DNA from: Desulfobacterales bacterium
Lineage (GTDB): Bacteria > Desulfobacterota > Desulfobacteria > Desulfobacterales > SpSt-501
Direction of reading: 5' to 3'
Length of the DNA: 64,000 nt
NCBI GenBank assembly: GCA_025454255.1
Contig: JALOOU010000005.1
Location: 3,045 to 67,044, forward strand
The position numbers and the translations under genes were made by a program. Of this stretch, positions 21,596 through 43,396 are shown piece after piece. The notes beneath the pieces are model-generated. The model had not been told where the DNA came from, did no database searches, and saw only the letters and a list, made by a program, of their open reading frames with translations. The stretch's first letter is position 1, and every line of letters starts with the position of its first letter.

Positions 21596-24500
21596 ATGCA
21601 GGATATCGATTGGAACGACTTGGCCCGACGGGCCGCTTTCGTGGGGGTGGATGTCGGGTCGCTGTCGGTCAAAGCCGCCGCCGTCGCGCCCGGCGGCGAG
21701 ATGGTCTGGTCCTTGAAGCGGCCCCACCAGGACGATGCCCTGGAGATGGTGGAGGATCTGGAGCGCCGGTGCCGCTTGAGCGGAATCGCCTTCGGGGTCA
21801 CCGGCCGTCTGAAGGCGGCGGAGGGGCGGCGGCCCCTGGATTCGGTCCTCTGCCTGCACGCGGCCGCCAGGCATCTGCACCCGTCGGCGACCAACATCCT
21901 GGAAATCGGCGCGACGCACTACTGCCGGGTGCGGCTGGACCGCAGCGGCGGCATCCAGTCCATTCAAACCAACCCGATCTGCGCAGCGGGCACCGGCTCC
22001 TTTCTGGACGCCCAGGCGCAACGGATGGGGCTGGCCCATGACGCCCTCGAGTTCGCAGGGATAGAAGCGGACCCGCCGGGAATCGCGACCCGCTGCGCGG
22101 TGTTCGCCAAGAGCGATCTCATCCACCGGCAGCAGGAGGGGTACGACATACAGGCCCTCTGGTCGGGCCTCTGCCGTGGCTTGGCCGAGGGGCTTCTCCG
22201 CGCGCTTACGCACGGCAGCCCGATGCGGGGGGAGGTGCTGTTGTGCGGCGGGGTCGCGCTGAATCGCACGTTTGTCGCCTGGCTGCGGAGCTCGTTCGAC
22301 GGCAATGGAAACAGAGCCTCCGTCACCGTTCTCCCGCAGCCCGAACTCGCCGCCGCGGTGGGGGCGGCGCTTCTCGGCCGCAACGGGAACGGCTTTCACC
22401 GGCGGCCCGTCCAAGCGACCCCCCAGACCTCCCGCACGCGCAGGCCGGCCCTGGCGCTGACGCGATCCAGCCGCGTCCGATACCGGCCTTTGAACTTCCG
22501 CAGCGATCATCTTCAAAACGAAATCACCGTCCACCGCCTGCCCCAGGGGCCCCCGGAGGAGACGCCGCTGTTCCTGGGAATCGACATCGGCTCAACCAGC
22601 ACCAAGCTGGCGTTCGTCGATGCGTCGGGCAGCCTGCTGCTGGACATTTACCGCCGCACCCAGAGCGACCCCGTCCAGGCGACCCGGCATCTGCTGAGCG
22701 CCGCCCGGGCCTGTTTCCAGCAATTTCGATGGGACCCCGTCGTGGCCGGCGCCGGGACCACCGGCAGCGGCCGCAGGCTCATCGGCGAGATCATCGGGGC
22801 CGATCTGATCGTCAACGAAATTTCGGCGCACGTGGCCGGCGCCGTGCGAATCGAGCCGGGGGTCCAAACGATCTTCGAAATCGGCGGCCAGGACGCCAAG
22901 TACATGCGCGTCAGCAACGGCCGCATCGTCGACGCCAACATGAACTACGTCTGCGCCGCCGGGACCGGGTCCTTCATCGAGGAGCTCTGCTCCACGCTCG
23001 GCTACCGCGTCGAGGAGCTCGGCGAGGAGTTGCTGGGCGTCGAGCCGCCCTACATCAACAGCCGCTGCACGGTGTTCATGGAGCAGGACATTCACGCCCT
23101 GCTGCAGGAGCGCGTCCCCCGCCGGGAAGCGGCCGGCGCCATCGTCTATTCGGTCATCGAAAACTACCTTCACCGCGTGGTCGGCAAACGGCCGGTGAAT
23201 GGGCCGCGCGTCATGTTCCAGGGGGCGACCGCGCGCAACATCGCCTTGTCGGCCGCCATCGAGCGCCTGCTGCAGCGGGAGGTGGTCGTATCGCCCTATC
23301 CCCACGCCATGGGCGCCTACGGGGCGGCCTTGCTGGTGCAATCCTCGCCGCCGGATGGAGCCTCGAAATTCAAAGGGCTCGATCTGGCATCGCGGCGCAT
23401 CGAAATCGAAAAGCAGACCTGCGGCGGCTGCCGCAACCGCTGCGAGCTGACGCGGGCCGTCATCGAGGATGAACCGCGGCAGCCGCTGTGGGGAATGAAA
23501 TGCGGGCGCGACGAGACCGGCGGAACCCACAACGAATTGGCGGCCTACGAGCTCTTTCGAAAGCGGCAGGAGCTGGTCCGGCCGGCCCCTGCGGCTGCAA
23601 AACGCCCCTCCTCGCCCAAACGCCTCCTCCTGCCGCTCGCGCTCTCCGCCTATTCGCTCGGCCCGTTCTGGGCCGAGTTTTTCAGCCGCATCGGACTCGA
23701 GCTTGCCGCGGGGCCGCCGACGGACGAACGCTGCCTGCAGTCCGGCCGACAAGTGGCGGCGTCCGAATTCTGCCTGCCGGTCAAAACCGCCCTCGGCCAT
23801 GCCGCTCAGTGCCTTGAACACACCAGCGACCCGCTGTTCGTGCCGCATTTGATTGCCGACTACAAGGTCGCAGGGACCACCCAGACCCGGTTCTGCCCCT
23901 ATCTGGAGGTCTTGCCCTCTCTCATCCGGCCGATGGCTGATAAAAAGGGCGGCGCCGAGGCCCGGATCCTAGCGCCGATCATCGACCTGCGGCTGCCCGA
24001 TTCGAAAAACGCCCAGGCGCTCATCGACAGCCTGCGCCCCCTTGCTTCCATCAGGCAACGAGATGCCGTGCAAGCCCTGCAGCACGCCCATCGCATCCGC
24101 CGGCAGCAGCGGGAGAAAATCGAGGCTGCCGGCCAGACGCGCTGGTCGAGCCTGCGCTCATCCGGCCGGCCGGCCGTGGTCGTCATCGGCCGCCCCTACA
24201 ACACGCTCGACCCCTTTCTCAGCCAACGCCTGCCCTACGAGATCGCCGCAGCCGGGATCGACGTGCTGCCCATGGACGGGCTCGCCTTCCGGCCGGAGCT
24301 GCTCAAGGGGTATTTTTCCAATCTCTTCTGGTCCTACGGCCAGCGGATCGTATCGGCCCTCATCCAGATCGCGCAAACCGACGGCCTCTACCCCGTGTAC
24401 CTGTCCAGCTTCGGCTGCGGGCCGGACAGCTTCATCCTCTCCTATGCCGAAACCATCATGGGCGACAAGCCGCTGTTGATCCTGGAGCTCGACGAGCATG

Positions 24501-25819
24501 GATCGAGCGGCGGGTACCTGACCCGGCTGGAGGCTTTCCTGGAGGTGGTCAAGGCGGACAACTCCAGGCGGCGGCCGGCGGCCGGGTCGGCGCCGTGGCG
24601 GCCGCCGGCGGAAGCCCCGACCCCAGCGGACATCAAGAAACGAAGGCTGTGCGTGCCGCATATGCACCCCACCGGCAGCCGGCTGCTGGCAGCGGCCCTG
24701 CGCGGCGAGGGGTTCAACGCCGTGGAGCTTCCCGTCGAGGACGACACGGCCTATGCCGAAGGCCGCAAATGGGCCAGGGGTTCGGAGTGTCTGCCGGCTC
24801 CTCTGACCCTTGGCAGCTTCCTGAAGCATTGCGGGGAGCAGCGCCGTAAAGGGGAAGACCCGAATACGGGGCTGGCCCTCTTCATGCCCACCTCCGACGG
24901 TCCCTGCCGCTTCGGCCAGTACTGCGCCCTGGACCGAATCATACTGGATGGCGTCGGCTGCCGGGGCCTGCCGATCTTGTCGCCCAGCTCGGAAAACGCC
25001 TATTACGGCATCGACCAGAAGATATTCGAATACATCCTCCTGGCCGACATCCTGTTCAAGCTGCGCTGCCGGGTCAAGCCCCGGGAGAAAACCCCGGGGG
25101 ACACCGAGGAAGCCCTTGATTTGTGGATGAAAAAAGCGGAGCGTGAGATCGAACAGCGGCGCATGCGCCTGAACGCCTTCCTGCCGGAGGCGGTGCGCGC
25201 GTTCCAGCGCATCCCGGTCGAGACCTCCCCCCGGATTCTCGTCGGGGTGGTGGGGGAGATCTACGTGCGCTGCCACGCCTTCGCCAACCGCGGCCTGGTC
25301 GACACCATCGAGCAGCTGGGGGGCGAGGCCTGGGTGGCCCCGGCCACGGAGTGGATCATGTACACCGCCTGGGTGGAGCGCTACCGCTTGAAGCGCAGCG
25401 GCATGGGCCCCTGGCAGGCCGCAACGCTTGCATTGAAGTGGCGCTACATGCAGCGCAGGGAGCACGCGGCTTACCGCCTGGCCGCAGCGCTGCTGTCGGA
25501 TCGCCGCGAGCCCTCTGTCGATGAAATCATTGCCGCCGGGCGTAAGTTTATACCCCCTGATTTCGAAGGCGAATCCATTCTGACCCTGGGGCGCGCCATG
25601 CTCTTCAAGCGCGACGGTGTCGGGCTGATCGTCAACTGCGCCCCCTTCGGCTGCATGCACGGCAACATCACCGCGACGCTTTTCAGCCAGGCGGCCGACG
25701 AATTCCACGCCCCGGTCGTCAACATCGCCTACGATGGGGTCGGAAACGCCAACTCCGCCGTGGAGACGTTCATGGAAGCGGCATGGCGCAACATGAAACC
25801 TGATCGCGGAACCCTCTGA
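21596..25819 (+). CDS. Fused BCR/HAD-family enzyme (PlsA/PlsAR/GeR-like), paralogue 1: two BcrAD/BadFG-type activase ATPase modules, a Cys cluster, and DUF2229/HgdB-like dehydratase-type domains
   Basis: 1407 aa. Module 1 has GVDVGSLSVKAAAV, NPICAAGTGSFLD and TRCAVFAKSDLIH, but EIGATHYC replaces the EIGGQD motif. Module 2 is intact: GIDIGSTSTKLAFV, FEIGGQDAKYMRV, NYVCAAGTGSFIEE, SRCTVFMEQDIHA. A Cys cluster follows, CGGCRNRC...KCG (nt 23420-23503). The C-terminal ~750 aa has VVVIGRPYNTLDPFLS and RILVGVVGEIYVRCHAF segments typical of the activase-associated domains. Confidence 0.8.
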   Translation: MQDIDWNDLARRAAFVGVDVGSLSVKAAAVAPGGEMVWSLKRPHQDDALEMVEDLERRCRLSGIAFGVTGRLKAAEGRRPLDSVLCLHAAARHLHPSATNILEIGATHYCRVRLDRSGGIQSIQTNPICAAGTGSFLDAQAQRMGLAHDALEFAGIEADPPGIATRCAVFAKSDLIHRQQEGYDIQALWSGLCRGLAEGLLRALTHGSPMRGEVLLCGGVALNRTFVAWLRSSFDGNGNRASVTVLPQPELAAAVGAALLGRNGNGFHRRPVQATPQTSRTRRPALALTRSSRVRYRPLNFRSDHLQNEITVHRLPQGPPEETPLFLGIDIGSTSTKLAFVDASGSLLLDIYRRTQSDPVQATRHLLSAARACFQQFRWDPVVAGAGTTGSGRRLIGEIIGADLIVNEISAHVAGAVRIEPGVQTIFEIGGQDAKYMRVSNGRIVDANMNYVCAAGTGSFIEELCSTLGYRVEELGEELLGVEPPYINSRCTVFMEQDIHALLQERVPRREAAGAIVYSVIENYLHRVVGKRPVNGPRVMFQGATARNIALSAAIERLLQREVVVSPYPHAMGAYGAALLVQSSPPDGASKFKGLDLASRRIEIEKQTCGGCRNRCELTRAVIEDEPRQPLWGMKCGRDETGGTHNELAAYELFRKRQELVRPAPAAAKRPSSPKRLLLPLALSAYSLGPFWAEFFSRIGLELAAGPPTDERCLQSGRQVAASEFCLPVKTALGHAAQCLEHTSDPLFVPHLIADYKVAGTTQTRFCPYLEVLPSLIRPMADKKGGAEARILAPIIDLRLPDSKNAQALIDSLRPLASIRQRDAVQALQHAHRIRRQQREKIEAAGQTRWSSLRSSGRPAVVVIGRPYNTLDPFLSQRLPYEIAAAGIDVLPMDGLAFRPELLKGYFSNLFWSYGQRIVSALIQIAQTDGLYPVYLSSFGCGPDSFILSYAETIMGDKPLLILELDEHGSSGGYLTRLEAFLEVVKADNSRRRPAAGSAPWRPPAEAPTPADIKKRRLCVPHMHPTGSRLLAAALRGEGFNAVELPVEDDTAYAEGRKWARGSECLPAPLTLGSFLKHCGEQRRKGEDPNTGLALFMPTSDGPCRFGQYCALDRIILDGVGCRGLPILSPSSENAYYGIDQKIFEYILLADILFKLRCRVKPREKTPGDTEEALDLWMKKAEREIEQRRMRLNAFLPEAVRAFQRIPVETSPRILVGVVGEIYVRCHAFANRGLVDTIEQLGGEAWVAPATEWIMYTAWVERYRLKRSGMGPWQAATLALKWRYMQRREHAAYRLAAALLSDRREPSVDEIIAAGRKFIPPDFEGESILTLGRAMLFKRDGVGLIVNCAPFGCMHGNITATLFSQAADEFHAPVVNIAYDGVGNANSAVETFMEAAWRNMKPDRGTL

Positions 25820-25822
25820 CCG

Positions 25823-27055
25823 ATGGAGCGCATGCGCAGCAAATCCGAAGTCGATACCGCTTTGATCTATTTGGCAGGGGAAGAGCTCTGCGGTTTCAAT
25901 CCCTCATTGCAGCAGATCGCCGGTTTGCCGCTCCTGCAGCGCCAGCTTCTCTGGCTGGCCAGGCACGACATCCGCACCGTTCATCTGATGGCCGCCCCCC
26001 CACAGGTGCCGGACTTAGAGGCTCGCCTGCACGGATGGCGCCGGCGACGCTCCATGCCGGAGGTGATCGTGGGGGGTGAGCCGCCTCGCAAAGCGCAGGG
26101 GAAGGCGGTCGTAGTGGACGGCCGCTTCCTGCATCACCCGGACCTGCTGCGGCACGCGCTGGCCGCCGAGGGGGAGTTTGCCTACGTCGACGGTCAAGGC
26201 GGGTCATGCGGCCTGGGCATCGTCGATCTTCAGAAGGCGGTCGGCCCAAACACTTTTCAATACCTTCCCAAGAACCCGATTCCAATAGATCTTTTCGCCT
26301 GCCGGCTCATCGACGCCCGGCAGGCCGGGCAGGCCGAAACCAAACTGCTGCGAAGCTTCATCAAGCCGACCGACGGTTGGTTTTCGAAGAGGATCAATCG
26401 ATCGGTTTCGCTCGCCATCACGCGAAAAATCGCGCCCCTGCCCCTGACGCCCAACATGATATCCGCCTTTGCCCTGCTGGTGGGGATCGGCTCCGGCTGG
26501 AGCGCCGCGCAGGGAAGCTGGGCCTGGCTGGCGGTCGGCGGGCTTCTCTATCAGGCCGCCAGCATCCTCGACGGGGTGGACGGGGAGCTGGCGCGGGCAA
26601 AACTGCTCTACTCAAAAATCGGCGAATGGATGGACAACGTTTGCGACGACCTGACCAATATCCTTTTTATTGCGGGGGTCACGATCGGGGTCTACCGCAG
26701 TTCGCTCGATCCGTTCTGGACGACCCTCGGCTCTCTATCGTTGGTCGTCTATGGGGCAACGATCGTCATCATGTACGGCAATCTGATCGCAAACAACCGC
26801 AAAGCCTCGCTTTTGGCCTTCCAGGAGAACATCCGCAGGCCCGGCTACCGCCCGGGGAGGATAACTTCATGGCTGGTCGCGCTGCAGCCTTTCATCAAAC
26901 GGGATTTTCACGGATACGCCATGATGGCTGCCGGCATGCTCGGCCTCGCCAAGCTCATCCTGGCCGGTTGGCTGATCGGCTCCGTCCTCACCTTGGGGTT
27001 CGTCTGGTCGGAGGTAAAGCGCCCGGCCGCCGGAGGCTCCTTCTGGAAAGACTGA
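25823..27055 (+). CDS. CDP-alcohol phosphatidyltransferase with N-terminal degenerate nucleotidyltransferase-like domain (IPCT/DIPPS-like architecture)
   Basis: 410 aa, starting 3 nt after the previous stop. The C-terminal membrane domain has the full signature DGVDGELARAKLLYSKIGEWMDNVCDD (DG-x2-AR-x8-G-x3-D-x3-D, about nt 26569-26650). The N-terminal ~190 aa has an NTP-transferase-like layout (ALIYLAGEELCGF...IAGLPLLQRQLLWLARHDIRTVHLM) but lacks the GxGxR loop. The linker KPTDGWFSKRINRSVSLAITRK resembles bifunctional IPCT/DIPPS proteins. Confidence 0.75.
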   Translation: MERMRSKSEVDTALIYLAGEELCGFNPSLQQIAGLPLLQRQLLWLARHDIRTVHLMAAPPQVPDLEARLHGWRRRRSMPEVIVGGEPPRKAQGKAVVVDGRFLHHPDLLRHALAAEGEFAYVDGQGGSCGLGIVDLQKAVGPNTFQYLPKNPIPIDLFACRLIDARQAGQAETKLLRSFIKPTDGWFSKRINRSVSLAITRKIAPLPLTPNMISAFALLVGIGSGWSAAQGSWAWLAVGGLLYQAASILDGVDGELARAKLLYSKIGEWMDNVCDDLTNILFIAGVTIGVYRSSLDPFWTTLGSLSLVVYGATIVIMYGNLIANNRKASLLAFQENIRRPGYRPGRITSWLVALQPFIKRDFHGYAMMAAGMLGLAKLILAGWLIGSVLTLGFVWSEVKRPAAGGSFWKD

Positions 27056-27078: not shown

Positions 27079-27795
27079 ATGGCATTTAAGCTGAAGGACG
27101 TCTGCACGGTCTTCAACATTGTTCTGTCGATTTATGCGGTGGTGCTTTCGTTTGCAGGACAGCTCGGCCTCGCGGCCTGGGTCATCTTCATCGCCTGGTT
27201 CATGGACGGGCTCGATGGACTGATCGCCAGGTGGACCAGGACCGGGAACGAATTCGGCGTGCATTTCGACAACCAGGCGGATCTGTTCATCTACACCGTC
27301 GCGCCGGCGTTCTATGCCTTCGCGGTGTATCGGGACGCCCACTATCTTTTGGGTATCGCGATCTGCTTTGCCGTCATCACGGTGGGATGCATCCGTCTGT
27401 CGCGGTTCAACGTCAAGCCGCTCATCTACCCGGGGTTCTGGATCGGCTACCCGCGCTCGGCGCTGGGCGTGCACATCATCTTTTTGCTGAATTCAAAGTT
27501 GTTTGCCGTGCATCAGCCCTACGTAGCCGCGGCGGTGATGCTGCTCGTTCTGACCGCGCTCAACCTCTCCTACATCCCCTATCGCAACCACAAGCGCAAG
27601 TTCACGCGCTTCGAGTGGGGGGTGTGCATCTTCTGCTGGGTGGTCTGGCCGATCAGCTATTTTTTCGGCTACTTCTGGGACACGGCGCTCTTCGGCAGCA
27701 CCGTCTACGCGCTGCTGCCCTTCACCCCGCTGCACGCCCGATACCGCGAGCCCATCCGGCGCTACATCGAGGAGTGGAGGGCCGCCACCCGCTGA
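27079..27795 (+). CDS. CDP-alcohol phosphatidyltransferase, phosphatidylserine-synthase-like (small PssA type)
   Basis: 238 aa, with RBS GGAGAGGG 8 nt upstream. The signature is DGLDGLIARWTRTGNEFGVHFDNQAD (about nt 27204-27285). The N-terminus KLKDVCTVFNIVLSIYAVVL and TVAPAFYAF match the short PssA-like layout. Confidence 0.8.
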   Translation: MAFKLKDVCTVFNIVLSIYAVVLSFAGQLGLAAWVIFIAWFMDGLDGLIARWTRTGNEFGVHFDNQADLFIYTVAPAFYAFAVYRDAHYLLGIAICFAVITVGCIRLSRFNVKPLIYPGFWIGYPRSALGVHIIFLLNSKLFAVHQPYVAAAVMLLVLTALNLSYIPYRNHKRKFTRFEWGVCIFCWVVWPISYFFGYFWDTALFGSTVYALLPFTPLHARYREPIRRYIEEWRAATR

Positions 27796-27813: not shown

Positions 27814-28563
27814 TCAATTCGCGTAACGGAAAAATGCAAACTGTCTCTCCGCATGGGCGAGCATCTCGGGCGTATCGATATCCTGCCAATACCCGTCGAC
27901 CGCAGCCGCCCGCATGCGGCCGGCATCGGCCAGGCGCTGGATGCCATCCGATAGGCTTGCATCCCCCTTTTCCGCCAGCACGGCAGCCAAAGCGGCAAAA
28001 AGCCCGGGCGTGGCCGAAAAGACCCCGATGTCCACGCAGTTGAACTCATCGATTTTTTTGCCGATACGATGGATGCGCCCGTTCGCCTGCTGCACCTTGG
28101 TGGCATCCTCCAGATCGAAAACCCGCTCCAGCCTGTGGTCGACCAGCAGGGTCGCCCCGCCGTCCGGCGGCGGGTGGGCGGGCAGGCCGGTCATGATGTC
28201 GTCGCTGACCAGATGGTCCCCCATCGCCAGGAAAAAATTTTCCGTGACGTGATGTTGGGCGCACAGGACCGACACTCCGTTGGACCTCCTGTAACGCGGG
28301 TTGAACACGAATTCGATTCGGGCGCCGCCGGAATAGGCGCGTGCGACCGCCTCGCGGACACCATCGGCCGAATGCCCGAGAACCACAATGATCCGCCGGC
28401 ATCCGGCAAGCTCGAGCCCCCGGATGGAATGCCAGATCAGCGGTTTTTCTTGGACGGGTATCAGCAGTTTGGAAAGCCCCGGGCATTCGGCCCCCGCCAG
28501 CCGGACCCCGCAGCCGGCAGCCAGGACAACCCCGGTCGAGATTCTCTTCGAATATGCCCGCAA
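27814..28563 (-). CDS. Nucleotidyltransferase (sugar- or alcohol-phosphate cytidylyl/uridylyltransferase family)
   Basis: 249 aa with an intact N-terminal loop VVLAAGCGVRL (GxGxRL). It has the usual beta-alpha layout (KLLIPVQEKPLIWHSIRGLELAGCRRIIVVLGH) and RBS GGGGGAGGAG. It converges on the CDP-alcohol transferase genes with an 18-nt gap. Confidence 0.8.
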   Translation of the reverse strand: MRAYSKRISTGVVLAAGCGVRLAGAECPGLSKLLIPVQEKPLIWHSIRGLELAGCRRIIVVLGHSADGVREAVARAYSGGARIEFVFNPRYRRSNGVSVLCAQHHVTENFFLAMGDHLVSDDIMTGLPAHPPPDGGATLLVDHRLERVFDLEDATKVQQANGRIHRIGKKIDEFNCVDIGVFSATPGLFAALAAVLAEKGDASLSDGIQRLADAGRMRAAAVDGYWQDIDTPEMLAHAERQFAFFRYAN

Positions 28564-28618
28564 ACCGCGGCTCCTCCCCCATATTCAATTGAAATTATTA
28601 ATTAGTTTCAAACCCGGG

Positions 28619-28646
28619 ATAATATCAAATTATTTCTTTTTTTCAA
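28619..28646 (-). promoter_or_regulatory. Candidate sigma-70 promoter (extended -10) for the nucleotidyltransferase gene
   Basis: On the minus strand: -35 TTGAAA (rc of 28641-28646), a 16-nt spacer, then TGATATTAT, an extended -10 (TATTAT = rc of 28619-28624). It lies about 55 nt upstream of the start codon at 28563, in an AT-rich intergenic island. Confidence 0.4.
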
Positions 28647-28703
28647 AGTGCATCGTGGAAGCGGCTATCTGCCGGTTAAAAAGATTAGGGCACTCCCGCT
28701 CAA

Positions 28704-28732: not shown

Positions 28733-28822
28733 CCGCGCTTCGAAACGACACAAGGAACACCCTGTTCCAACATAACAATTTAAAAAAATTATATTTTTTT
28801 ATGATCGACGATTCATTTCGAG

Positions 28823-36285: not shown

Positions 36286-37227
36286 CTATCTCGAAGGGTT
36301 CGACCTTACAGGGGCTGCGGCCGCCGGCGCGCCGTGCCAACCGGCCAGCAGCTCCTCGATCTGCCGGTCCTTCTCGGCCCACAGATCGTTCAGCCATTGT
36401 TGAAATTGCGCGCGGAACCCCCCGTCGCCCAGCGGGTCGCCCATCAGTTCAGGGCCCACCGGCAGGCAGCGCACCCGGACCTTGATCTCTTCGATATTTC
36501 CGCACAACAGCGCCCAGAAACCGTGGACCCCGGCCGGGTAGACGATGGTCACATCCAGGATCCGATGAATCTTATCGCCCATGGCGTGCAGCACGGCCGC
36601 TATGCCGCCGGCTCTCGGCCTGAGCAGATGGGTGTAAGGGGACTGCTGCTGCCGGTGCTTCTGGGCGGTGAAGCGTGTGCCTTCGACAAAATTCATGATG
36701 GAGATCGGAATCTGCTGGAATTTGGTGCAGGCCCGGCGCGTGATCTCCAAATCCTTGCCCCGCAGGTGAGGCTTGCGCTGGAGCTTGGCTTTCGAATAGC
36801 GCTTGATGAACGGAAAATCCAGCGCCCACCAGGCCTGCCCCAGGACCGGCAGCCAAAAGAGCTCCTTTTTGATGAAGAATTTCAGGAAGGGGATCTTGCG
36901 ATGAAAAATCCGCTGCAGCACGACAATGTCGGTCCAGGACTGGTGGTTGGCCAACACCAGGAACCACTGCGACGGATCCAGGCTTTCGGCCCCCTGCACG
37001 TCCCAGCGCGTGCCATTGGTGATCCTCTGGTTCAGGTTGTTGCCCCAGACCCATTTTTCGGCGATGGCATTGAGCACCCGGCTGCAGCCCGTGCGCCAGC
37101 CGTGGATGGGGACCAGCGCCTTGAGCGCCGCCATGATGAAAAGCGCCGTGCACCAGACAGCGGTGTTCACCGCAAAAAGAAGAAACGACACGATGCCCCG
37201 AACGGGCCCGGGCAAGGATTTGATCAT
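36286..37227 (-). CDS. PlsC-superfamily lysophospholipid acyltransferase, YihG-like
   Basis: 313 aa. It has an N-terminal TM anchor, the HX4D motif in LANHQSWTDIVVL, then FVEGTRFT, and a C-terminal FQQWLNDLWAEKDRQIEELL that matches my memory of E. coli YihG. RBS is GAGGTG. Confidence 0.8.
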   Translation of the reverse strand: MIKSLPGPVRGIVSFLLFAVNTAVWCTALFIMAALKALVPIHGWRTGCSRVLNAIAEKWVWGNNLNQRITNGTRWDVQGAESLDPSQWFLVLANHQSWTDIVVLQRIFHRKIPFLKFFIKKELFWLPVLGQAWWALDFPFIKRYSKAKLQRKPHLRGKDLEITRRACTKFQQIPISIMNFVEGTRFTAQKHRQQQSPYTHLLRPRAGGIAAVLHAMGDKIHRILDVTIVYPAGVHGFWALLCGNIEEIKVRVRCLPVGPELMGDPLGDGGFRAQFQQWLNDLWAEKDRQIEELLAGWHGAPAAAAPVRSNPSR

Positions 37228-37323
37228 CTTGGTTCACCTCAGCGGCGGTGCCGGCGCCTTCGAGCGGCTCGACGGGGCGCTTCAGCGCACCGGTGTTCGA
37301 TCCTGATGCAGGCACAAGTGTTC

Positions 37324-37352
37324 ATTATACGAACATATAGGAGCCACTTCAA
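37324..37352 (-). promoter_or_regulatory. Candidate sigma-70 promoter for the acyltransferase / PlsA-like paralogue 2 operon
   Basis: On the minus strand: -35 TTGAAG (rc of 37347-37352), a 17-nt spacer, then a perfect -10 TATAAT (rc of 37324-37329). It lies about 95 nt upstream of the start at 37227. The -10 sits inside the small inverted repeat TGTTCattatacGAACA (37319-37335). Confidence 0.4.
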
Positions 37353-37511
37353 CCATGGTTTTTCCCGATGCGGAGAACAAATAATCTGTCCGCAGCTGCA
37401 GCACACGATCTGTCCGGTTTAGCAGGCGACCGAGGCAGAGACCGGGAGGGCGGCTTCCCGGCCGCGCTTGCCAAGCCCGTCAAGGTGGTTTAGGGTCCCG
37501 AGTGCATCCTG

Positions 37512-38339
37512 ATGGGGGGAGGCCCACCGGTGACCCTGAAGCAAGCCGCGCGCGCCCGAAAAATTCTCGGCAGGATCGGCGCTGTCATAATAATCGTCTT
37601 TTTCGCCGCCGTGCTGGACAGCTGCGTCGCCCGGTTCCGGGAGCCGCTGTTTACGGTCCATCTGCTGCCGGGCGCCAGCGAACTGGTCGAGGGGCAGGTG
37701 GATCACGAGCTCAAAGACCTCTCCCTGCTGCGCGTCGAGGCCTCGCATGCAGGCGTTCAGCTGAAAATCGAGAGGTTTCAGACCGGCTACTGGCTCGGCG
37801 GCAACATGTGGATCGGCGCCATCAGCGCCGCGGCCGATGCCGCCGCCGGCACCTACGACCTGCGGGTCTTCGCCGCCGGCAAACCGCCCGACACGCCGGT
37901 CGCGGCCTTCCGGGCCCATGTCTACCCGGACTACCCGGCCCTGCGAAAAAGCTTCCTTTCCGTCATCCGGCGCACCTTCGATATATCCCCGGGACGAGCG
38001 GCCTTGGCCTGCATCCCGCTGTTGGCTGCGGTGCTGGGCGCGCTCTACCTGCTCAGCCGCAAGGTGGAGCGATTGATGGCGGGCCAGGGGCGGGCGGAGG
38101 TTTTCATGCTCAAGGCGGCCCCCGGCGGGATCGAGGTCTATTTCGGACTGGGCCGCCGCCACGGGGCCGAACCGGGCATGGCCGTGCAGATCTGCGAAGA
38201 GAACGGCCGGCTGATCTGCGCGGCGGTGGTCCGGCAGGCGGACGATGCAAACGCCATGGCCTTTGCCGCGGGTGGCCCCGAAAAACTGCCGCACGGCGCG
38301 CTGGTCGTGCTGGGCGGCGCCGCGGAAAAGATTGATTAG
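37512..38339 (+). CDS. Hypothetical membrane protein (275 aa, two predicted TM helices)
   Basis: The hydrophobic segments are IGAVIIIVFFAAVL and AALACIPLLAAVLGALYLL. I recognise no family. It is the first gene of a plus-strand string ending at 43396. The 911-aa minus-strand ORF 37419-40154 is rejected as antisense. Confidence 0.5.
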   Translation: MGGGPPVTLKQAARARKILGRIGAVIIIVFFAAVLDSCVARFREPLFTVHLLPGASELVEGQVDHELKDLSLLRVEASHAGVQLKIERFQTGYWLGGNMWIGAISAAADAAAGTYDLRVFAAGKPPDTPVAAFRAHVYPDYPALRKSFLSVIRRTFDISPGRAALACIPLLAAVLGALYLLSRKVERLMAGQGRAEVFMLKAAPGGIEVYFGLGRRHGAEPGMAVQICEENGRLICAAVVRQADDANAMAFAAGGPEKLPHGALVVLGGAAEKID

Positions 38340-38477: not shown

Positions 38478-41400
38478 ATGAAGCTTTTCGCCAAGTCTGA
38501 CGCCTGCCGCCTGCTGGCCGACCCGCAGGGCCCGGCCGCCAAGCGCTATCTTCACTACGCCGCATTTCTCGACCACAACCACCGGGCGCTGCGCCTGCTC
38601 GCCGAGCTCGAGCTTCTGGACCGGGGCGCCGGGTTCGCGACGCTCGCCTCGATCCGGCGCCGGGCCGGGGAGCTTCTGGAGGAGGTGCGCGGCCTGGTGG
38701 CGGCGCTGAGCGGCCTGGCCGGGACGCGCTACCAGGAGCTGCTGCCGACCTTCCAAAAAGTGGCGGAGGAGCTTGCCCCGTGGATCGATCGGCGGCGCGC
38801 AGCCATCGCGGGGCCGCTCACCCTGCCGTTTGCAGCGTTGGCAGGTCGGCACATCCCTTTGGCCGGGGCCAAGGCGGTCAACCTGGCGCGGATCAAAAAC
38901 GAACTCGGCCTCGCGGCGCCGGAGGGGTTCTCCGTGACGACGGCGGCCTTCGACCTGTTTTTGCGCGATAATCGGCTGCGCGAGCCCATCGATGCCATGC
39001 TGGCCGCATTCGATCCGGAGGCCGAAGAGAGCGATGCGGCCTGCCGCCGCCTCCGGGAAAGCATCTGCGCGGCCCCGCTGCCGCGGGCGCTGGCTGCCGC
39101 CATCGACCGGGAGGTCCAGGTGCTTGCCGCCCGCCTCGGGAACCCGCCGCTGCTGGCCGTGCGCAGCAGCGCCGTGGGCGAGGACGGCGCGGCCTCTTTC
39201 GCCGGCCAGTATGCCAGCGTGCTGCCGGTGGAGGCGGAAAAGATCGCCGCCGCCTACAAAACGGTGCTGGCCAGCAAATACACCCCGCGCGCCATCACCT
39301 ACCGGCTGCGCTACGGGCTGACCGACGACGCCACTCCCATGGCCGTGGCCGTGGTGGCCATGATCCGGCCGCGGGCAAGCGGCGTGCTCTACACCGTGGA
39401 CCCGTCTCTGCCCAACGCCGGTCTCGCCCGCATCGACGCCGCTGTCGGGGCGGGGGAGCAGGTGGTGGGCGGCTCGGCCTCGCCGGATGTGTTCCGGGTC
39501 GACCGCAGCTCGCTTAAAATCACCCAGCGCCGCGTTCAGCCCAAACCGGGCGAGCCCGACCTGCAGCAGCCGACCCCGGCCGTTGCCGAGGAGACCGCGA
39601 TCGCGCTGGCCAAGTCCGGCGTGCAGATGGAGGCGCATTTCGGCGCGCCCCAGGACATCGAATGGGCCGAGGACGAACGGGGCGGGCTGTTTTTTCTGCA
39701 GGCCCGGCCCCTGGGCCTGGCCGGCAGCGCCGAAGCGCCGCCGGCGCCCGAGGTTTCCGGCCTCAAGCTGCTGCTCGCGGCCGGGCAGACGGCCTCCCCC
39801 GGCCGGGTGTCGGGAAGGGCGGTGCTGGCGACCCCTGACGTGAAACCGGCAGCCGCCGCTGGCGCCATCCTGATTGCGCGCACGGCCGCCCCGGAGCTGG
39901 CGCCGCTCGTGGGCCGGGCGCGCGGTCTCATCACCGACCTGGGAGGAGCCGCCAGCCACCTGGCCTCGGTCGCCCGAGAGTTCAACGTGCCGGCCCTCAT
40001 GGACACCCGGGTGGCCACCGCCTCGATCGCAGCGGGCCGGGAGATCACTCTCCTGGCGGATGAATGCAAGGTCTTCGAGGGGCTGGTGCCCGAACTGGCG
40101 CGCAAGCCCCCGGCCCGAAGCGCAGACGACGAGCGCGGCCCGATCGGCAGCCACCTGCGCGAGCTGCTAAGCCGCATATCCCCTTTGAACCTGACCGATC
40201 CCGCCTCCGCCGAGTTCTCCCCGCGCGGGTGCCGCAGCCTGCACGATGTGATCCGCTTCGCCCATGAAAAAGCCATGGCGGAGATGTTCAACCTCTCCGA
40301 ATTGGCCGACGCCTCCGTCGTCTCCCGTAAAATGAGCGCCAACATCCCCTTGTCGATCTACTTCATCGACCTGGGCGGGGGGCTCGCTCCGGAGCTGACC
40401 TCCTGCGACGAGATTCTGCCCGCGCACATCCGCTCCAAGCCGATGGCGGCCCTGTGGCGCGGGCTGACCCACCCGGGGATCAGCTGGTCCGGGGCCGTGG
40501 ACATCAGTGCGCGCAACTTCATGGCCCTCATGGCCGGCAGCATCGGGCCCGAAAATGCCGCGCCGCCGCAGGTCGACTCCTATGCCTTGGTGTCGGCCGA
40601 CTACCTGAACCTGAGCGTCAAATTCGGCTATCACTATTCCAACCTGGATGCGCTCTGCTCGGCGGATGCGAACGCCAACACCCTCACGCTCCAGTTTTCG
40701 GGGGGCGCCGGCACCGGCGCGGGCAAGGCCCTGCGCATCGAATTCCTCTCCCAGGTGCTGAACCGGCTGGGATACCAGGTGGCGGTGCGCGGCGATATGC
40801 TGCAAGCGGCATTGAAAGGATTGGACCGCCCCTCCATGGAGGAAATACTGGACCAGACCGGGCGCCTGCTCGGCTGCAGCCGGCTGCTCGATCTCGCCAT
40901 CCCCAGCCAGACCGAAGTGGCGGCCTTGACCGAGCTGTTTTTCAATGAGGACTACGACTTTCTGGGCCGATCCGAGAAGCGGCTGCCGGGATATCATGCT
41001 GCGGTGGGGGAGTGGTCGCAGGGCGAACTCGACGGGCAGGCGGTCATCGTTCAGAACGGCGCAGGCATGACGAGCACGATCGCCTGCAGCCTGCACCATG
41101 CCCTGGACAAGGTGCTGGGAGGCCGGTACCAGAAATTTTTAGAAAACCGGCACGCCCGGCATTACTACCCCGTGGCCGTGAAACGCGACAGCCGCCGGAG
41201 CGGCGGCCGCAGCCGGGTCGATCTTCGGATCGGGGCCGGCTGCGTGGATCTCGCGGCCGGGCTCGCTTTCGGCCTTGCGAACGTCGGCAACTGCCTGGTG
41301 CTCGCCGCCGATGCCAGCGCCGGCGAGCTCCAGCTATTGGAGTTCATCAACAACACCCGCCATTTCCGCGCACGCAAAGCGGCGGAAATCCCCATGGACC

Positions 41401-41570
41401 GCTGGCTGAAGCTCGAGGTGCGTGTGGCCGGAAAAAAAATTACGGGCACCCTGGACGGCCGGGCCGCGCTGGAATTCACCGCCGCGAAGCCGGTCGAGGG
41501 CCATGTGGGGCTCTGGTGCAAGGGTGACACGACGGCCTACTTCAGGGACCTTGAGGCGAGTGCGCCATGA
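38478..41570 (+). CDS. PEP-synthase-like phosphotransferase: PPDK_N ATP-grasp + phosphohistidine swivel domain + non-TIM-barrel C-terminal region ending in a LamG/DUF1080-like module
   Basis: 1030 aa. ATP-grasp motifs are AGAKAVNLARIKNELGLAAPEGFSVTT, LAVRSSAVGEDGAASFAGQY, RASGVLYTVDP and PQDIEWAEDERGGLFFLQARP. The swivel is GLITDLGGAASHLASVAREFNVPAL (His494, nt 39957-39959). I could not find the NDLTQ or catalytic-Cys signatures of the PEP/pyruvate TIM barrel downstream. The last ~120 aa (DRWLKLEVRVAGKKITGTLDGRAALEF...EGHVGLWCKGDTTAYFRDLE) resemble a jelly-roll DUF1080/LamG module. Confidence 0.75.
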   Translation: MKLFAKSDACRLLADPQGPAAKRYLHYAAFLDHNHRALRLLAELELLDRGAGFATLASIRRRAGELLEEVRGLVAALSGLAGTRYQELLPTFQKVAEELAPWIDRRRAAIAGPLTLPFAALAGRHIPLAGAKAVNLARIKNELGLAAPEGFSVTTAAFDLFLRDNRLREPIDAMLAAFDPEAEESDAACRRLRESICAAPLPRALAAAIDREVQVLAARLGNPPLLAVRSSAVGEDGAASFAGQYASVLPVEAEKIAAAYKTVLASKYTPRAITYRLRYGLTDDATPMAVAVVAMIRPRASGVLYTVDPSLPNAGLARIDAAVGAGEQVVGGSASPDVFRVDRSSLKITQRRVQPKPGEPDLQQPTPAVAEETAIALAKSGVQMEAHFGAPQDIEWAEDERGGLFFLQARPLGLAGSAEAPPAPEVSGLKLLLAAGQTASPGRVSGRAVLATPDVKPAAAAGAILIARTAAPELAPLVGRARGLITDLGGAASHLASVAREFNVPALMDTRVATASIAAGREITLLADECKVFEGLVPELARKPPARSADDERGPIGSHLRELLSRISPLNLTDPASAEFSPRGCRSLHDVIRFAHEKAMAEMFNLSELADASVVSRKMSANIPLSIYFIDLGGGLAPELTSCDEILPAHIRSKPMAALWRGLTHPGISWSGAVDISARNFMALMAGSIGPENAAPPQVDSYALVSADYLNLSVKFGYHYSNLDALCSADANANTLTLQFSGGAGTGAGKALRIEFLSQVLNRLGYQVAVRGDMLQAALKGLDRPSMEEILDQTGRLLGCSRLLDLAIPSQTEVAALTELFFNEDYDFLGRSEKRLPGYHAAVGEWSQGELDGQAVIVQNGAGMTSTIACSLHHALDKVLGGRYQKFLENRHARHYYPVAVKRDSRRSGGRSRVDLRIGAGCVDLAAGLAFGLANVGNCLVLAADASAGELQLLEFINNTRHFRARKAAEIPMDRWLKLEVRVAGKKITGTLDGRAALEFTAAKPVEGHVGLWCKGDTTAYFRDLEASAP

Positions 41571-43396
41571 CGGCGGACCAAATCAAAATCAGCGTCATTC
41601 TGATCGCGATGATAGCGCTCTTCATCTGGGACCGCTGGCGGCACGACTTCGTTTCGATGGCAGCGCTGCTCGCCTGCGTGTTCACCGGGCTGGTGCCGGC
41701 GACTGACGCCTTCGCCGGCTTCGGCCATCCCGCCGTCATCACCGTCGCGGGGGTGCTGATCCTGAGCGGGGTGCTGGAGTCCTCCGGCGCCGCCGACATC
41801 CTGGTGCGCGCCGTCATGCCGCGCGCGGCCGGACCCACCCTCACCATCGCCGTTCTGGTCGGTCTTGCGGCGCTCATGTCGGCCTTCATGAACAACGTCG
41901 GCGCGCTCGCGCTGCTGATACCGGTTGCCATCCAGATCGCCGCCCGCCAGGGCATTCCGCCCGGCCGCCTGCTCATGCCGCTGGCATTCGGTTCGATCCT
42001 CGGGGGGATGACCACCCTGATCGGCACCCCGCCCAACCTGATCGTATCGGGGTTTCGGGCCGAAAACGGCGCCGGGACCTTCGCCATGTTCGACTTCACT
42101 CCGGTGGGGCTTGCGGTGGCCGGGGCCGGGGTCGTGTTTATCGCCCTCTTCGGCTGGCGGCTGGTCCCGGAGCGTAAAAAGGCGGGCATCCAGGGGTTTG
42201 AGATCGGGGCCTATCTCACCGAGGCGCGCGTGCCTGAAAAGTCCAAGGCCGTCGGCATGACGCTCTATGAGATCGAAAAGGCGCTGGACGAAGCCGACGC
42301 CCAGGTCGTCGGCCTGGTGCGCCACGATGTCCGCATCCCGGCCCCCGACCCGCGGCGCCGCATCCATACGGGAGACATCCTGGTGATCGAGGCCGACCCG
42401 CCGGCGCTGCGGGAGTCGCTCTCGCTGCTCGGGCTGAAGTTGGAGGAGGACAAGCCGGCCGAGGCGCCGGAATGCGCAGGGGTTCTGAGCAAGGCGGAGG
42501 CCGCCCGCTGCGCCGAACTGGAAAAAGCCGTGCAATCCGAGGACGTGGGCCTGGCGGAGATGGTCCTGTTTTCGGATTCGAGCCTCGTGGGCCGCACGGT
42601 CACCGACATTCAACTGCGCACGCTGCACCACATCAACCTGCTGGCGGTCTCGCGCCAGGGGCGCCGAACCACGGCGCGTCTGCGCTCCCTGGTGCTCGCG
42701 GCCGGGGACGTGCTGCTCCTGCAGGGCGCACGCGATGCACTGAGCGACTTTGCCATCCGTTTTGGATGCGCGCCGCTGGCGGAGCGGCCGCTGCAGCTGC
42801 CGCGCAAGCGCGAAGCCCTTCTTGCCGGGGCCGTCATGGCGCTGGGCGTGGGTGCGGCGGCGTTCGGCCTGGTGCCGGCGGCGATCTCCTTCCTGCTCGC
42901 CGCGCTGGCCTCCGTGCTGCTGAAGCTCATGCCCCCGCGCAGGTTCTACCACGCAGTGGACTGGCCCGTGGTCGTGCTGCTCGCAACGCTGATCCCGGTC
43001 GCCCAGGCGGTGGCCGGCACCGGCACCGCAGCCATGATCGGCCGAACGCTGGTGGAGGCCGTGGCGCAAGGCCATGCGGTGCTCGCGCTCATCTTGATTC
43101 TGCTTGCCACGATGACGCTCACCAGCTTCATGAGCAACGCCGCCACCGCCGCGGTCATGTGCCCGGTGGCCATCAGCACCGCCAACAACCTGGCGGCCAG
43201 CGCCGACCCCTTCCTGATGGCCGTGGCGGTGGCCTCTTCCTGCGCCTTCCTCACGCCCATCAGCCACCAGAACAACACGCTGATCCTGGGGCCCGGCGGC
43301 TTCCGCTTCGGCGACTACTGGCAGCTGGGGCTGCCGCTCGAGCTCATCGTCATCGCGGTCGGCGTGCCGATGATCCTGCTGGTCTGGCCGCTGTGA
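41567..43396 (+). CDS. SLC13/DASS-family anion permease with two central TrkA-C (RCK-C) domains
   Basis: 609 aa with an ATGA overlap onto the previous gene. It has hydrophobic N- and C-terminal halves with SxMNNVGA / SFMSNAATAAVM (SNT-type hairpin motifs). The two cytoplasmic segments are IEADPPALRE and GDVLLLQG, which are TrkA-C-like. Confidence 0.85.
   Translation: MTADQIKISVILIAMIALFIWDRWRHDFVSMAALLACVFTGLVPATDAFAGFGHPAVITVAGVLILSGVLESSGAADILVRAVMPRAAGPTLTIAVLVGLAALMSAFMNNVGALALLIPVAIQIAARQGIPPGRLLMPLAFGSILGGMTTLIGTPPNLIVSGFRAENGAGTFAMFDFTPVGLAVAGAGVVFIALFGWRLVPERKKAGIQGFEIGAYLTEARVPEKSKAVGMTLYEIEKALDEADAQVVGLVRHDVRIPAPDPRRRIHTGDILVIEADPPALRESLSLLGLKLEEDKPAEAPECAGVLSKAEAARCAELEKAVQSEDVGLAEMVLFSDSSLVGRTVTDIQLRTLHHINLLAVSRQGRRTTARLRSLVLAAGDVLLLQGARDALSDFAIRFGCAPLAERPLQLPRKREALLAGAVMALGVGAAAFGLVPAAISFLLAALASVLLKLMPPRRFYHAVDWPVVVLLATLIPVAQAVAGTGTAAMIGRTLVEAVAQGHAVLALILILLATMTLTSFMSNAATAAVMCPVAISTANNLAASADPFLMAVAVASSCAFLTPISHQNNTLILGPGGFRFGDYWQLGLPLELIVIAVGVPMILLVWPL

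Follow-up and report, generated by a model that had tools for sequence, protein, structure and literature searches.

A conserved gene cluster in a Desulfobacterales bacterium that joins PlsA/Ger-family enzymes to CDP-alcohol transferases, and the ether-linked phospho-glycolipid predicted as its product

Introduction

The non-isoprenoid ether lipids of bacteria are widespread in anoxic environments and form the basis of palaeoclimate proxies, and the ether-forming step (Ger/PlsA) is the only one known genetically. How are head groups attached to ether cores, do dedicated enzymes exist for this purpose, and what is the role of the second Ger paralogs that some genomes carry? These questions are raised by a locus in the genome of a Desulfobacterales bacterium (assembly GCA_025454255.1, contig JALOOU010000005.1, positions 3,045 to 67,044), of which a stretch of 64,000 nucleotides (nt), called the window below, was analysed. 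In this locus the genes for two large proteins of the PlsA/Ger family, P1 and P2, lie among genes for cytidine-diphosphate (CDP)-alcohol transferases, a cytidylyltransferase and an acyltransferase, a combination of known enzyme kinds that is real, conserved and so far undescribed. These genes most likely belong to a modular biosynthetic cluster of ~27 kb (roughly 10.1-37.2 kb of the window), and we lean, without great assurance, towards the prediction that its product is an ether-linked phospholipid derived from a CDP-alcohol (probably an inositol phospholipid) that would then be glycosylated and exported to the envelope. The original prediction for this locus, made from the sequence alone, had suggested a possible complete pathway to a non-canonical ether phospholipid or glycolipid at 21596-43396. 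The conserved core of ether-enzyme and head-group genes at its centre stands, while the true unit is larger on the left, where genes for glycosylation are added upstream, and smaller on the right, where one transcription unit falls away.

A conserved core of ether-enzyme and head-group genes

Genes were picked from the list of open reading frames (ORFs) for the domains they encode and for their match to public gene calls, and domains were assigned to the proteins of the window with Pfam, NCBIfam and the Protein Data Bank (PDB). The core consists of the following genes (lengths in amino acids, aa):

21596-25819, + strand: P1, 1407 aa, two BcrAD_BadFG domains and DUF2229 (Pfam)
25823-27055, + strand: CDP1, 410 aa, CDP-OH_P_transf domain confined to the C-terminal half
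27079-27795, + strand: CDP2, 238 aa, CDP-OH_P_transf domain
27814-28563, - strand: cytidylyltransferase resembling CTP:inositol-1-phosphate cytidylyltransferase (IPCT), NTP_transf_3/NTP_transferase
32033-36250, - strand: P2, 1405 aa, two BcrAD_BadFG domains and DUF2229
36286-37227, - strand: YihG-family 1-acylglycerol-3-phosphate acyltransferase (LPAAT), NF058536

P1 is followed by CDP1 after 3 nt and CDP1 by CDP2 after 23 nt, and the cytidylyltransferase gene is convergent on these three; YihG precedes P2 by 35 nt, and this pair is convergent on the genes of a flavoprotein and a membrane protein of GT-C fold. Divergent, AT-rich gaps with promoter-like hexamers lie at 28564-28822 and 37228-37529, and the genes of a phosphotransferase and a DASS permease, farther to the right, overlap by 4 nt. 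This spacing agrees with the four short transcription units proposed in the original prediction, whose ORFs and domains are all present at the places given for them. The G+C content of 57-72% over the cluster gives rise to many spurious overlapping ORFs. No Rfam families or tRNAs were found in the window, and terminator-like hairpins were left unused as evidence, their number (28, against a shuffle mean of 17.6 with a standard deviation of 5.1) being only ~2 standard deviations above the mean and most of them being intragenic.

The core, P1-CDP1-CDP2 together with the IPCT-like cytidylyltransferase and P2-YihG, is found again in relatives whose identity ranges from 82% to 68%. The closest locus (L002, P2 82%) holds the complete set, YihG and P2 being separated there by a radical SAM gene. 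In L003 (70%) YihG, P2 and a nucleotidyltransferase (NTP) gene are convergent on CDP2-CDP1-P1, after which come TPR and HisC-like genes that sit 10 kb upstream in the window. In L084, from a Syntrophobacteraceae metagenome-assembled genome (MAG, 68%), P2 faces CDP2-CDP1-P1-NTP, followed by GT4 glycosyltransferases. L087 carries three GT4 genes, a flippase and a gene of the type found at 17788-19122 of the window (60-68%), then P1-CDP1-CDP2-HAD-NTP and, farther on, genes resembling UDP-galactopyranose mutase (UGM) and the GT-C protein, with a convergent P2, and L091 has the order CDP1-CDP2-IPCT-UGM-like-GT-C, then P2. P2 thus lies beside the cassette in L002, L003, L084, L087 and L091, whereas P2-clade homologs at 55-61% (L004, L085) stand alone.

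Farther out, the linkage of P1 to CDP1 persists. L086 (P1 49%) has CDP1-HisC-like-CDP2-P1 with GT4s, a flippase, HAD, NTP and Gfo/Idh/MocA genes, and in L168 (P1 54%) a CDP1-type gene comes immediately after P1, accompanied by an IspD-like cytidylyltransferase, a mannitol-dehydrogenase-like gene, a GT4, a flippase, a radical SAM gene and MMPL/MlaC/OEP genes. L170, from an Acidobacteriota MAG (P1 51%), has CDP1 (36%), HisC-like (38%) and CDP2 (42%) genes in a row, with four GT4s, a flippase and a PMT_2 GT-C enzyme; a phosphonate module (phosphoenolpyruvate (PEP) mutase, decarboxylase and an aminotransferase-cytidylyltransferase fusion) replaces the IPCT there. L169 (P1 49%) stands alone, and a separate metagenome locus (L095) combines a CDP1-like gene, a GT4, an outlying Ger-family gene and an IPCT-like gene. 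Over the P1 superclade, a CDP1-type gene is found within 10 kb of the P1-type gene in 8 of 9 loci, the Acidobacteriota MAG included.

As a control, 80 loci (1.35 Mb, ~20 phyla) were taken from a scan of species-representative genomes with a P2 profile, among the matches listed; all of them except L004 encode distant Ger-family proteins (33-39% to P2). Homologs of CDP1, CDP2, the cytidylyltransferase or YihG occur in none of these 80 (tblastn E < 0.01), and a CDP-alcohol transferase motif of any kind in 2 of them, while the CDP1-type motif is present in every positive locus. The contrast between 8/9 and 0/80 is given as counts instead of a P-value, since the loci are not phylogenetically independent. 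The same genes are nevertheless adjacent in independent assemblies and their pairing is absent from the 80 control loci, so that the co-location goes beyond chance. It had been proposed that ordinary PlsA/Ger-family members stand alone and that P1 and P2 are exceptional in lying within a set of head-group activation and transfer genes and an acyltransferase; both proposals are borne out, the neighbourhood being conserved across relatives and the pairing of P1 with CDP1 across phyla.

Some genes of the relatives were observed beside the cassette in their own right. The radical SAM gene of L002 (L002:8987-9916) encodes ~300 aa with an N-terminal region that is MoaA/Tes-like (NCBIfam), and its homologs (42-51%) lie directly beside CDP1-like and IPCT-like genes in 11 unrelated metagenome loci (L092, L104, L108, L114, L117, L123, L124, L138, L142, L145, L149) and also occur in the L168 cluster. 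The window holds no homolog of the radical SAM, HAD, Gfo/Idh/MocA and class-III aminotransferase genes of the relatives. The phosphonate module of L170 (L170:1736-6416) comprises a PEP mutase-cytidylyltransferase fusion, a thiamine-pyrophosphate-dependent decarboxylase and a cytidylyltransferase-aminotransferase fusion, and hints at an ether-linked phosphonolipid.

P1 and P2 as members of the PlsA/Ger family

P1 matches PF01869 in two stretches (1.9e-62) and PF09989 (1.8e-40), and P2 matches the same Pfam families at 3e-60 and 3e-55; for P2 the public gene call (P0001, 1405 aa) starts 49 codons downstream of the start of the maximal ORF of 1454 aa. The two proteins are 29% identical to each other. 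Both retain all 15 of the 15 Cys columns conserved over 150 family members and each retains at least 169 of the 173 columns with at least 90% conservation. End-to-end alignments to ORFs from Thermotogaceae, Clostridia, Desulfobacterales and other MAGs reach 30-37% identity with E values from 0 to 1e-169. In these alignments and in the tree, family members from MAGs stand in for characterised PlsA and Ger. Judged by their sequences, P1 and P2 are full-length members of the family to which PlsA and Ger belong, characterised by two BcrAD_BadFG domains plus DUF2229, as had been surmised from their domain layout, and P1 is the signature gene of the cassette. The profile searches recovered most of the domains named in advance for the locus (BcrAD_BadFG, DUF2229, CDP-OH_P_transf, NTP_transferase, PPDK_N and PEP-utilizers); HGD-D (PF06050) gave no match in P1 or P2 at E < 0.01, being faint in some homologs, while the 15 conserved Cys are kept, and the GT-C-like protein fell in no Pfam family. 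In a neighbour-joining tree of the MAG family members, P1 and P2 form two separate deep clades, outside the bulk clade that holds most of the sampled phyla.

The layout of two activase domains, DUF2229 and a Cys-rich C-terminal half in ~1400 aa is shared with Ger of Thermotoga maritima (Tmari_0479) and Desulfatibacillum alkenivorans (SHJ90043) and with PlsA/PlsR of Clostridium perfringens and the single-gene PlsA of Enterococcus and Lactococcus. The layout of two BcrAD_BadFG domains and DUF2229 (BBD) is conserved in all alkyl-ether producers (PMC13159169), and the published criterion for the family is E <= 1e-50 with at least 30% coverage against T. maritima Ger. Since single-gene PlsA likewise has two activation domains (PMC12838417), the BBD architecture cannot separate PlsA from Ger, and specialists hold that the two are not assignable from sequence (PMC13274423); the products of P1 and P2 may be of the alkyl or the alkenyl type. 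Expressed alone in E. coli, Ger of D. alkenivorans yields mono- and dialkylglycerols and its paralog Ger2 yields nothing (PMC11150832), a pair of paralogs in one Desulfobacterota genome that P1 and P2 echo. The difference lies in the surroundings: Ger and PlsA genes have been treated as stand-alone or two-gene units, whereas P1-type genes stand in an operon with CDP-alcohol transferases. The P1 ortholog of L087 (L087:6747-10004, 70%) has ~1090-1110 aa and is apparently missing the first activase domain, although a second assembly of this gene is cut at a contig end.

Head-group activation and transfer

CDP1 is predicted to be a CDP-alcohol phosphotransferase of the AF2299/DIPPS/BEPIS type with a degenerate, nucleotidyltransferase-like N-terminal domain. 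Its C-terminal half matches the DIPPS half of NF041135 (E = 1e-23, NCBIfam), its PDB sequence matches are 4o6m (AF2299, 7e-20) and 4mnd (the IPCT-DIPPS of Archaeoglobus fulgidus, 5e-16), and it carries the complete CDP-alcohol transferase motif DGVDGELARAKLLYSKIGEWMDNVCDD, of the form D-x2-D-G-x2-A-R-x8-G-x3-D-x3-D, which is invariant in 19 homologs. The AlphaFold2 (AF2) model of CDP1 has a confidence score (pLDDT) of 80.5 and aligns with AF2299 in Foldseek over ~400 columns, with a template-modelling (TM) score of 0.77-0.80 normalised to the target. The N-terminal 170 residues have no family match (Pfam E <= 10, NCBIfam, PDB profile search); in the AF2 model they adopt a nucleotidyltransferase fold, for which Foldseek matches RmlA and MurU. 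By inspection the GxGxR signature is missing from this domain, whereas the separate cytidylyltransferase carries it (VLAAGCGVRL).

CDP2, which always accompanies CDP1 in the relatives, is by its sequence a PssA-like CDP-alcohol phosphatidyltransferase and not a certified PssA member: it scores 80.3 bits against TIGR00473 pssA (cut-off 107) and 74-75 bits against models of archaetidylserine synthase (cut-offs 200-240), retains the motif, and matches 7pow and 7b1k in the PDB at E ~1e-8, the best match being the phosphatidylserine (PS) synthase of Methanocaldococcus jannaschii.

The cytidylyltransferase is IPCT-like and thus a putative CDP-inositol synthase. Its best PDB matches are 2xme, a CTP:inositol-1-phosphate cytidylyltransferase (2.4e-21), and 4mnd (9.5e-21), with the next enzyme class at 5e-12, and in NCBIfam the IPCT half of NF041135 matches best (positions 2-216, E = 1.1e-33). 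The score of 116.8 bits stands against a cut-off of 580 which a protein of half length cannot reach, because the model covers the bifunctional fusion. Orthologs at 70-80% are found in L002, L003 and L091, and no relationship to the NTP genes of L084 and L087 was detected (tblastn E < 1e-5 over at least half the length). In metagenomes most CDP1-like genes adjoin an IPCT-like gene, and a distant CDP1 homolog of Novosphingobium stands in the order CDP1-like gene, myo-inositol-1-phosphate synthase (MIPS), nucleotidyltransferase, with a second CDP-OH transferase and a flippase next door.

The acyltransferase scores 423.4 bits over its full length against NF058536 (cut-off 260), which assigns it to the YihG-family 1-acylglycerol-3-phosphate acyltransferases, presumably co-transcribed with P2; orthologs lie upstream of P2 in L002 (86%) and in L003 (50%), where the two genes overlap by 4 nt.

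Glycosylation and export genes around the core

Between the cytidylyltransferase and P2, and upstream of P1, further genes accompany the core:

28823-30400, + strand: UGM-like flavoprotein, PRK07208 family
30408-32048, + strand: GT-C-fold membrane protein, 546 aa, without a Pfam family
19994-21208, - strand: glycosyltransferase GT4c, orthologs at 68% in L087 and 45% in L086
18747-19991, - strand: glycosyltransferase GT4b, orthologs at 64% in L087 and 34% in L170 and L086
17788-19122, - strand: protein without a Pfam or NCBIfam match, maximal ORF 444 aa, 66% over 328 aa to L087
16232-17941, - strand: Polysacc_synt_3 (Wzx-type) flippase, PF13440 at E = 4e-85, L087 ortholog 65%
14982-16235, - strand: glycosyltransferase GT4a, Glycos_transf_1/Glyco_transf_4, L087 ortholog 61%
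12389-14992, + strand: alkaline-phosphatase-superfamily protein, 867 aa, weak Pfam matches to Metalloenzyme/Phosphodiest
10111-11304, + strand: HisC/CobD-like pyridoxal-phosphate (PLP) enzyme, called AT12 here, Aminotran_1_2

The flavoprotein had been put forward as an FAD oxidoreductase. It matches NF005546 (PRK07208, named 'hypothetical protein') with 820 bits, its best PDB relatives are UGMs of the eukaryote type (4dsg, E = 9e-12 over residues 158-504), and it reaches 24 bits against the curated UGM model TIGR00031, whose cut-off is 303.75. In sequence it is thus UGM-like, below the curated cut-off, and would belong to glycan and not to glycerolipid metabolism; orthologs at 71-82% occur in L002, L087 and L091. 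A phytoene-desaturase-type lipid desaturase or saturase was considered and rejected, as the N-terminal dinucleotide-binding motif is all that matches such enzymes, the body of the protein matching UGMs. The claim that every recognisable product acts on glycerolipids fails with this protein, and also with the phosphotransferase and permease of the right-hand unit, which show no tie to lipids.

The membrane protein encoded next to it has no sequence-level family (Pfam E <= 10, NCBIfam, PDB profile search) and belongs to a family of 5510 cluster representatives at E <= 1e-3 without a Pfam or NCBIfam model. Its AF2 model (pLDDT 91.2) has GT-C enzymes as its only high-probability Foldseek matches (ArnT with a TM score of 0.48, EmbA/B, PglB, STT3, DPY19, ALG3, AftD), and the family shares a motif HEPWRDE...W...R after the first transmembrane helix, in which H41 and D46 are invariant and E42 and E47 conserved in at least 90%. 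The predicted fold and this acidic motif identify a glycosyltransferase-like protein of GT-C fold and uphold the label 'GT-C-like' that it had been given.

The functional unit reaches upstream of the left border first proposed, taking in the three GT4s, the flippase and the HisC/CobD-like enzyme. GT4c is divergent from P1 over a gap of 387 nt, and flippases are also present in the L086, L168, L170 and L171 clusters. The real start of the gene at 17788-19122 is probably near 18750, since its L087 ortholog has 304 aa. AT12 scores 243 bits against TIGR01141 hisC (cut-off 276.55) and 153 bits against CobD; its orthologs adjoin P1 in L003 (67%) and, in L086 (41%) and L170 (38%), stand precisely between the genes of CDP1 and CDP2 type, a position which suggests head-group chemistry and not histidine synthesis, so that AT12 is probably an accessory member of the cassette. 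A serine-palmitoyltransferase-type oxoamine synthase was ruled out for this protein by NCBIfam, its best matches being HisC and CobD. The 867-aa protein could possibly be a phospho-head-group transferase of LtaS/EptA type, its membership in the cluster being uncertain; the equivalent cluster of L086 is flanked by a gene for an 808-aa protein with Sulfatase, Phosphodiest and Metalloenzyme matches. LptF/LptG genes adjoin the HisC-like gene both in the window (7832-9984, + strand) and in L003 (L003:23659-24185). Other lipid-export genes were seen in L168 (MMPL, MlaC and OEP, L168:5044-9682) and in L170 (OEP).

The right-hand unit and the genes downstream

To the right of the core, across a divergent gap of 302 nt, lies a further unit:

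37530-38339, + strand: 269-aa protein with an N-terminal transmembrane helix
38349-38441, + strand: micropeptide ORF, 30 aa, hydrophobic, with an AGGAGG ribosome-binding site
38478-41570, + strand: PEP-synthase-like phosphotransferase, PPDK_N and PEP-utilizers
41567-43396, + strand: DASS permease, CitMHS and two TrkA_C domains

The 269-aa protein has no family match (Pfam E <= 10, NCBIfam, PDB profile search), is conserved in L002 only (78%) and is probably outside the core. The micropeptide ORF (VEYLTIIVLVFGSIIIGLVIGNRLRNRNKQ) is probably a real gene, given its AGGAGG site and its conservation in L002 with substitutions that fall mostly at third codon positions and are mostly synonymous. The phosphotransferase has PPDK_N, a swivel His domain and a C-terminal half of 490 aa in which a sub-threshold 3keto-disac_hyd match is the only one; its partial NCBIfam matches to PEP synthase, rifamycin phosphotransferase and PigC/RedH are all far below their cut-offs, and it does not qualify as a PEP synthase or pyruvate phosphate dikinase, the PEP-utilizers_C TIM barrel being absent. 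Its gene adjoins the core in L002 only. The permease, translationally coupled to it, reaches 127 bits against TIGR00785, below the cut-off, and has a counterpart in L002 only (93%). As phosphotransferase, permease, 269-aa protein and micropeptide are shared with L002 alone and missing beside the core in L003 and L084, the 'complete pathway' of the original prediction overreaches, and the phosphotransferase/DASS/micropeptide unit is probably a mere neighbour and not part of the pathway.

Downstream, a block at 43781-53118 encodes a circularly permuted ATP-grasp protein, Alpha-E, a transglutaminase-like protein, a DUF2126 amidoligase and a duplicated ATP-grasp/Alpha-E fusion, and is not shared with the L002 neighbourhood except for a spermine-synthase-like gene. 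A 535-aa oxidase with FAD_binding_4 and BBE domains (58082-59689, + strand) is not of the FAD-oxidase_C type of alkyl-dihydroxyacetone-phosphate synthase and provides no evidence for an aerobic ether-lipid route.

Comparison with known systems

The closest precedent for such a head-group route is found in Rhodothermus marinus, where, according to the accounts given in PMC4587543 and PMC9246714 of the work of Jorge et al. (2015), CDP-inositol donates its inositol phosphate to dialkylether glycerol; the BEPIS operon of this organism is described as MIPS-IPCT-BEPIS (Jorge, Borges and Santos 2015, as reported in PMC4587543). A putative 'alternative' inositol-lipid cluster of Bacteroides and Prevotella combines an NTP transferase, a CDP-alcohol transferase and a HAD protein (PMC9246714). 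Our locus resembles the former in pairing an IPCT-like cytidylyltransferase with a transferase of AF2299/DIPPS type (BEPIS being compared by its description) and, through the distant CDP1 homolog of Novosphingobium, in the association with a MIPS operon; it resembles the latter in the HAD hydrolases of L086 and L087 and a CarboxypepD_reg protein in L095. It differs from both in that no MIPS turned up among the ORFs scanned in the window, that the pair is constantly accompanied by a PS-synthase-like transferase and a HisC-like enzyme, and that the pair is joined to ether-bond-forming enzymes, a joining not reported in the literature consulted on Rhodothermus or Bacteroidetes. The literature search returned no paper joining 'glycerol ester reductase' and 'inositol', and the lipid papers that combine plsA, CDP-alcohol phosphatidyltransferase and ether describe no such cluster.

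In its two-domain architecture and catalytic motif CDP1 resembles IPCT-DIPPS (4MND) and AF2299 (4O6M), which are its best matches in both sequence and fold; it differs in that it has lost GxGxR from the N-terminal domain, its cytidylyltransferase is a separate gene, and its context is one of membrane-lipid and glycan genes and not of solute synthesis. The assembly of phosphatidylinositol mannosides and lipoglycans in Actinobacteria, which proceeds from phosphatidylinositol synthase to the GT4 enzymes PimA/PimB, to flipping and to GT-C enzymes, with galactofuranose from UGM, offers an analogy of logic, of which orthology is no part: the same enzyme classes are co-located here, but the anchor is predicted to be ether-linked and to be formed via CDP-inositol and not CDP-diacylglycerol.

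The predicted product and the alternatives to it

In the pathway that we favour, a YihG-type acyltransferase and the housekeeping pathway would supply a diacyl glycerolipid, and P1 and P2, as ATP-driven, [4Fe-4S]-dependent enzymes of the benzoyl-CoA-reductase/2-hydroxyacyl-CoA-dehydratase type, would reduce a glycerol-bound ester to an alkyl or alk-1-enyl ether under anoxia; the two may act on different positions (sn-1 versus sn-2) or on different classes of substrate. The IPCT-like enzyme would convert inositol-1-phosphate and CTP to CDP-inositol, from which CDP1 would transfer inositol phosphate to alkyl/acyl- or dialkyl-glycerol in a Kennedy-type reaction, as in R. marinus, and the PS-synthase-like CDP2 may work with the HisC/CobD-like PLP enzyme in making or modifying a second head group of amino type. 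The GT4s would glycosylate the lipid on the cytoplasmic face, the flippase would then translocate it, and the UGM-like mutase and the GT-C enzyme would add a (furanose) sugar outside. As the CDP-inositol route needs an ether-linked glycerol acceptor and the genes stand in an operon with ether-forming enzymes, this reading appears the most economical.

Several points weigh against it. DIPPS acts on a soluble acceptor, and the lipid acceptor of CDP1 is only predicted. The proteins of the window score below the curated IPCT/DIPPS and PssA cut-offs, the ORFs scanned in the window yielded no MIPS even though an IPCT-like gene adjoins CDP1, and the deep clade of P1 in the neighbour-joining tree contains no characterised member. 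Equivalent clusters have swapped activation modules, L084, L087, L086 and L168 having another type of nucleotidyltransferase and L170 the phosphonate module, so that the head group clearly varies from one form of the cassette to another and may in our locus be something other than inositol. A broader reading, which we advance as tentative, is that the P1 and CDP1 cassette, usually with the HisC-like gene and CDP2, is widespread and modular, a dedicated Ger-family enzyme being coupled with a Kennedy-type transferase that attaches interchangeable CDP- or CMP-activated head groups (inositol phosphate, other polyol phosphates, aminoethylphosphonate) to give ether-linked phospho-glycolipids that would be glycosylated, flipped and sent to the outer envelope, in Desulfobacterota, Acidobacteriota and other phyla.

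For the window itself, an ether-anchored glycophospholipid with a head group other than inositol, its cytidylyltransferase activating another polyol or amino-alcohol phosphate and CDP1 being a generic CDP-X:diradylglycerol transferase with a donor determined by the adjacent activation module, is possible, if on the unlikely side. The lack of MIPS among the ORFs scanned and the scores of the cytidylyltransferase and CDP1 below the curated IPCT-DIPPS cut-off would fit it, as would the HAD, NTP_transf_3, Gfo/Idh/MocA and aminotransferase genes of L086 and L087, the IspD-like and mannitol-dehydrogenase-like enzymes of L168 and the PEP mutase, decarboxylase and aminotransferase-cytidylyltransferase fusion of L170. 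The cytidylyltransferase of the window is, however, closest to IPCT in both PDB and NCBIfam (2e-21 and 1e-33; the PDB class that follows reaches 5e-12) and shows no tblastn relationship to the NTP genes in L084 and L087 at the threshold given above, and CDP1-like genes in metagenomes usually lie beside IPCT-like genes, the one in Novosphingobium beside MIPS.

The ether bond itself could be doubted, if P1 and perhaps P2 were not glycerol-ester reductases and carried out another ATP-driven reduction or dehydration, of a polyol head group or a CoA ester, the product being an ester-linked phospho-glycolipid. P1 is only 30-33% identical to the bulk family members and sits in its deep clade without a characterised enzyme, HGD-D goes undetected in both proteins at E < 0.01, Ger2 of D. 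alkenivorans gave no ether lipid in E. coli (PMC11150832), and function is held to be unreadable from sequence in the PlsA/Ger family (PMC13274423). Set against this are the full-length BBD layout that is conserved in all alkyl-ether producers (PMC13159169), the retention of 15/15 family Cys and of at least 169/173 conserved columns, and operon partners that are integral-membrane head-group transferases and an LPAAT, with no CoA-metabolism genes present; we consider it unlikely.

The gap left by MIPS would be filled if the whole 22 kb formed one pathway, the permease importing a head-group precursor, inositol in this case, and the phosphotransferase phosphorylating it for the cytidylyltransferase. 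The right-hand module does adjoin the core in the window and in L002, and the phosphotransferase has the layout of ATP-grasp, swivel-His and substrate domain known from hydroxyl-phosphorylating enzymes, with partial matches to rifamycin phosphotransferase. This proposal is nevertheless quite improbable, for the module is absent beside the core in L003 and L084 and from L086, L168 and L170, and a divergent gap of 302 nt separates it from YihG. DASS carriers, moreover, transport anions and are unsuited to neutral polyols.

It is very improbable that the IPCT-like and DIPPS-like genes make soluble di-myo-inositol phosphate and lie by P1 and P2 through happenstance, even if the best curated match of both proteins is the bifunctional Thermococcales IPCT/DIPPS model NF041135 and the best PDB matches are IPCT and IPCT-DIPPS of A. 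fulgidus, since the order P1-CDP1-CDP2, with its gaps of 3 and 23 nt in the window, is kept from 82% to ~36-50% identity and across phyla, the N-terminal domain of CDP1 is without the GxGxR of true fusions, a second CDP-OH transferase, GT4s, a flippase and a GT-C enzyme travel with CDP1, and equivalent clusters swap in non-inositol activation modules.

Significance

A distinct Ger clade together with CDP-alcohol transferases, a cytidylyltransferase, glycosyltransferases and a flippase represents a clonable gene set. As a side result, a large family of membrane proteins (~5500 cluster representatives) that Pfam does not cover is now assigned a GT-C fold. If the product is an ether-linked inositol phospholipid, the cluster would tie research on ether lipids to the CDP-inositol lipid pathway, which has received little study and for which the ether-bond enzyme of Rhodothermus is not identified in the literature searched. 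If the broader, modular reading is true, the orphan alkyl-ether intact polar lipids seen in anoxic sediments would have their genetic origin in this cassette, which would also explain the silence of a second Ger paralog when it is expressed alone.

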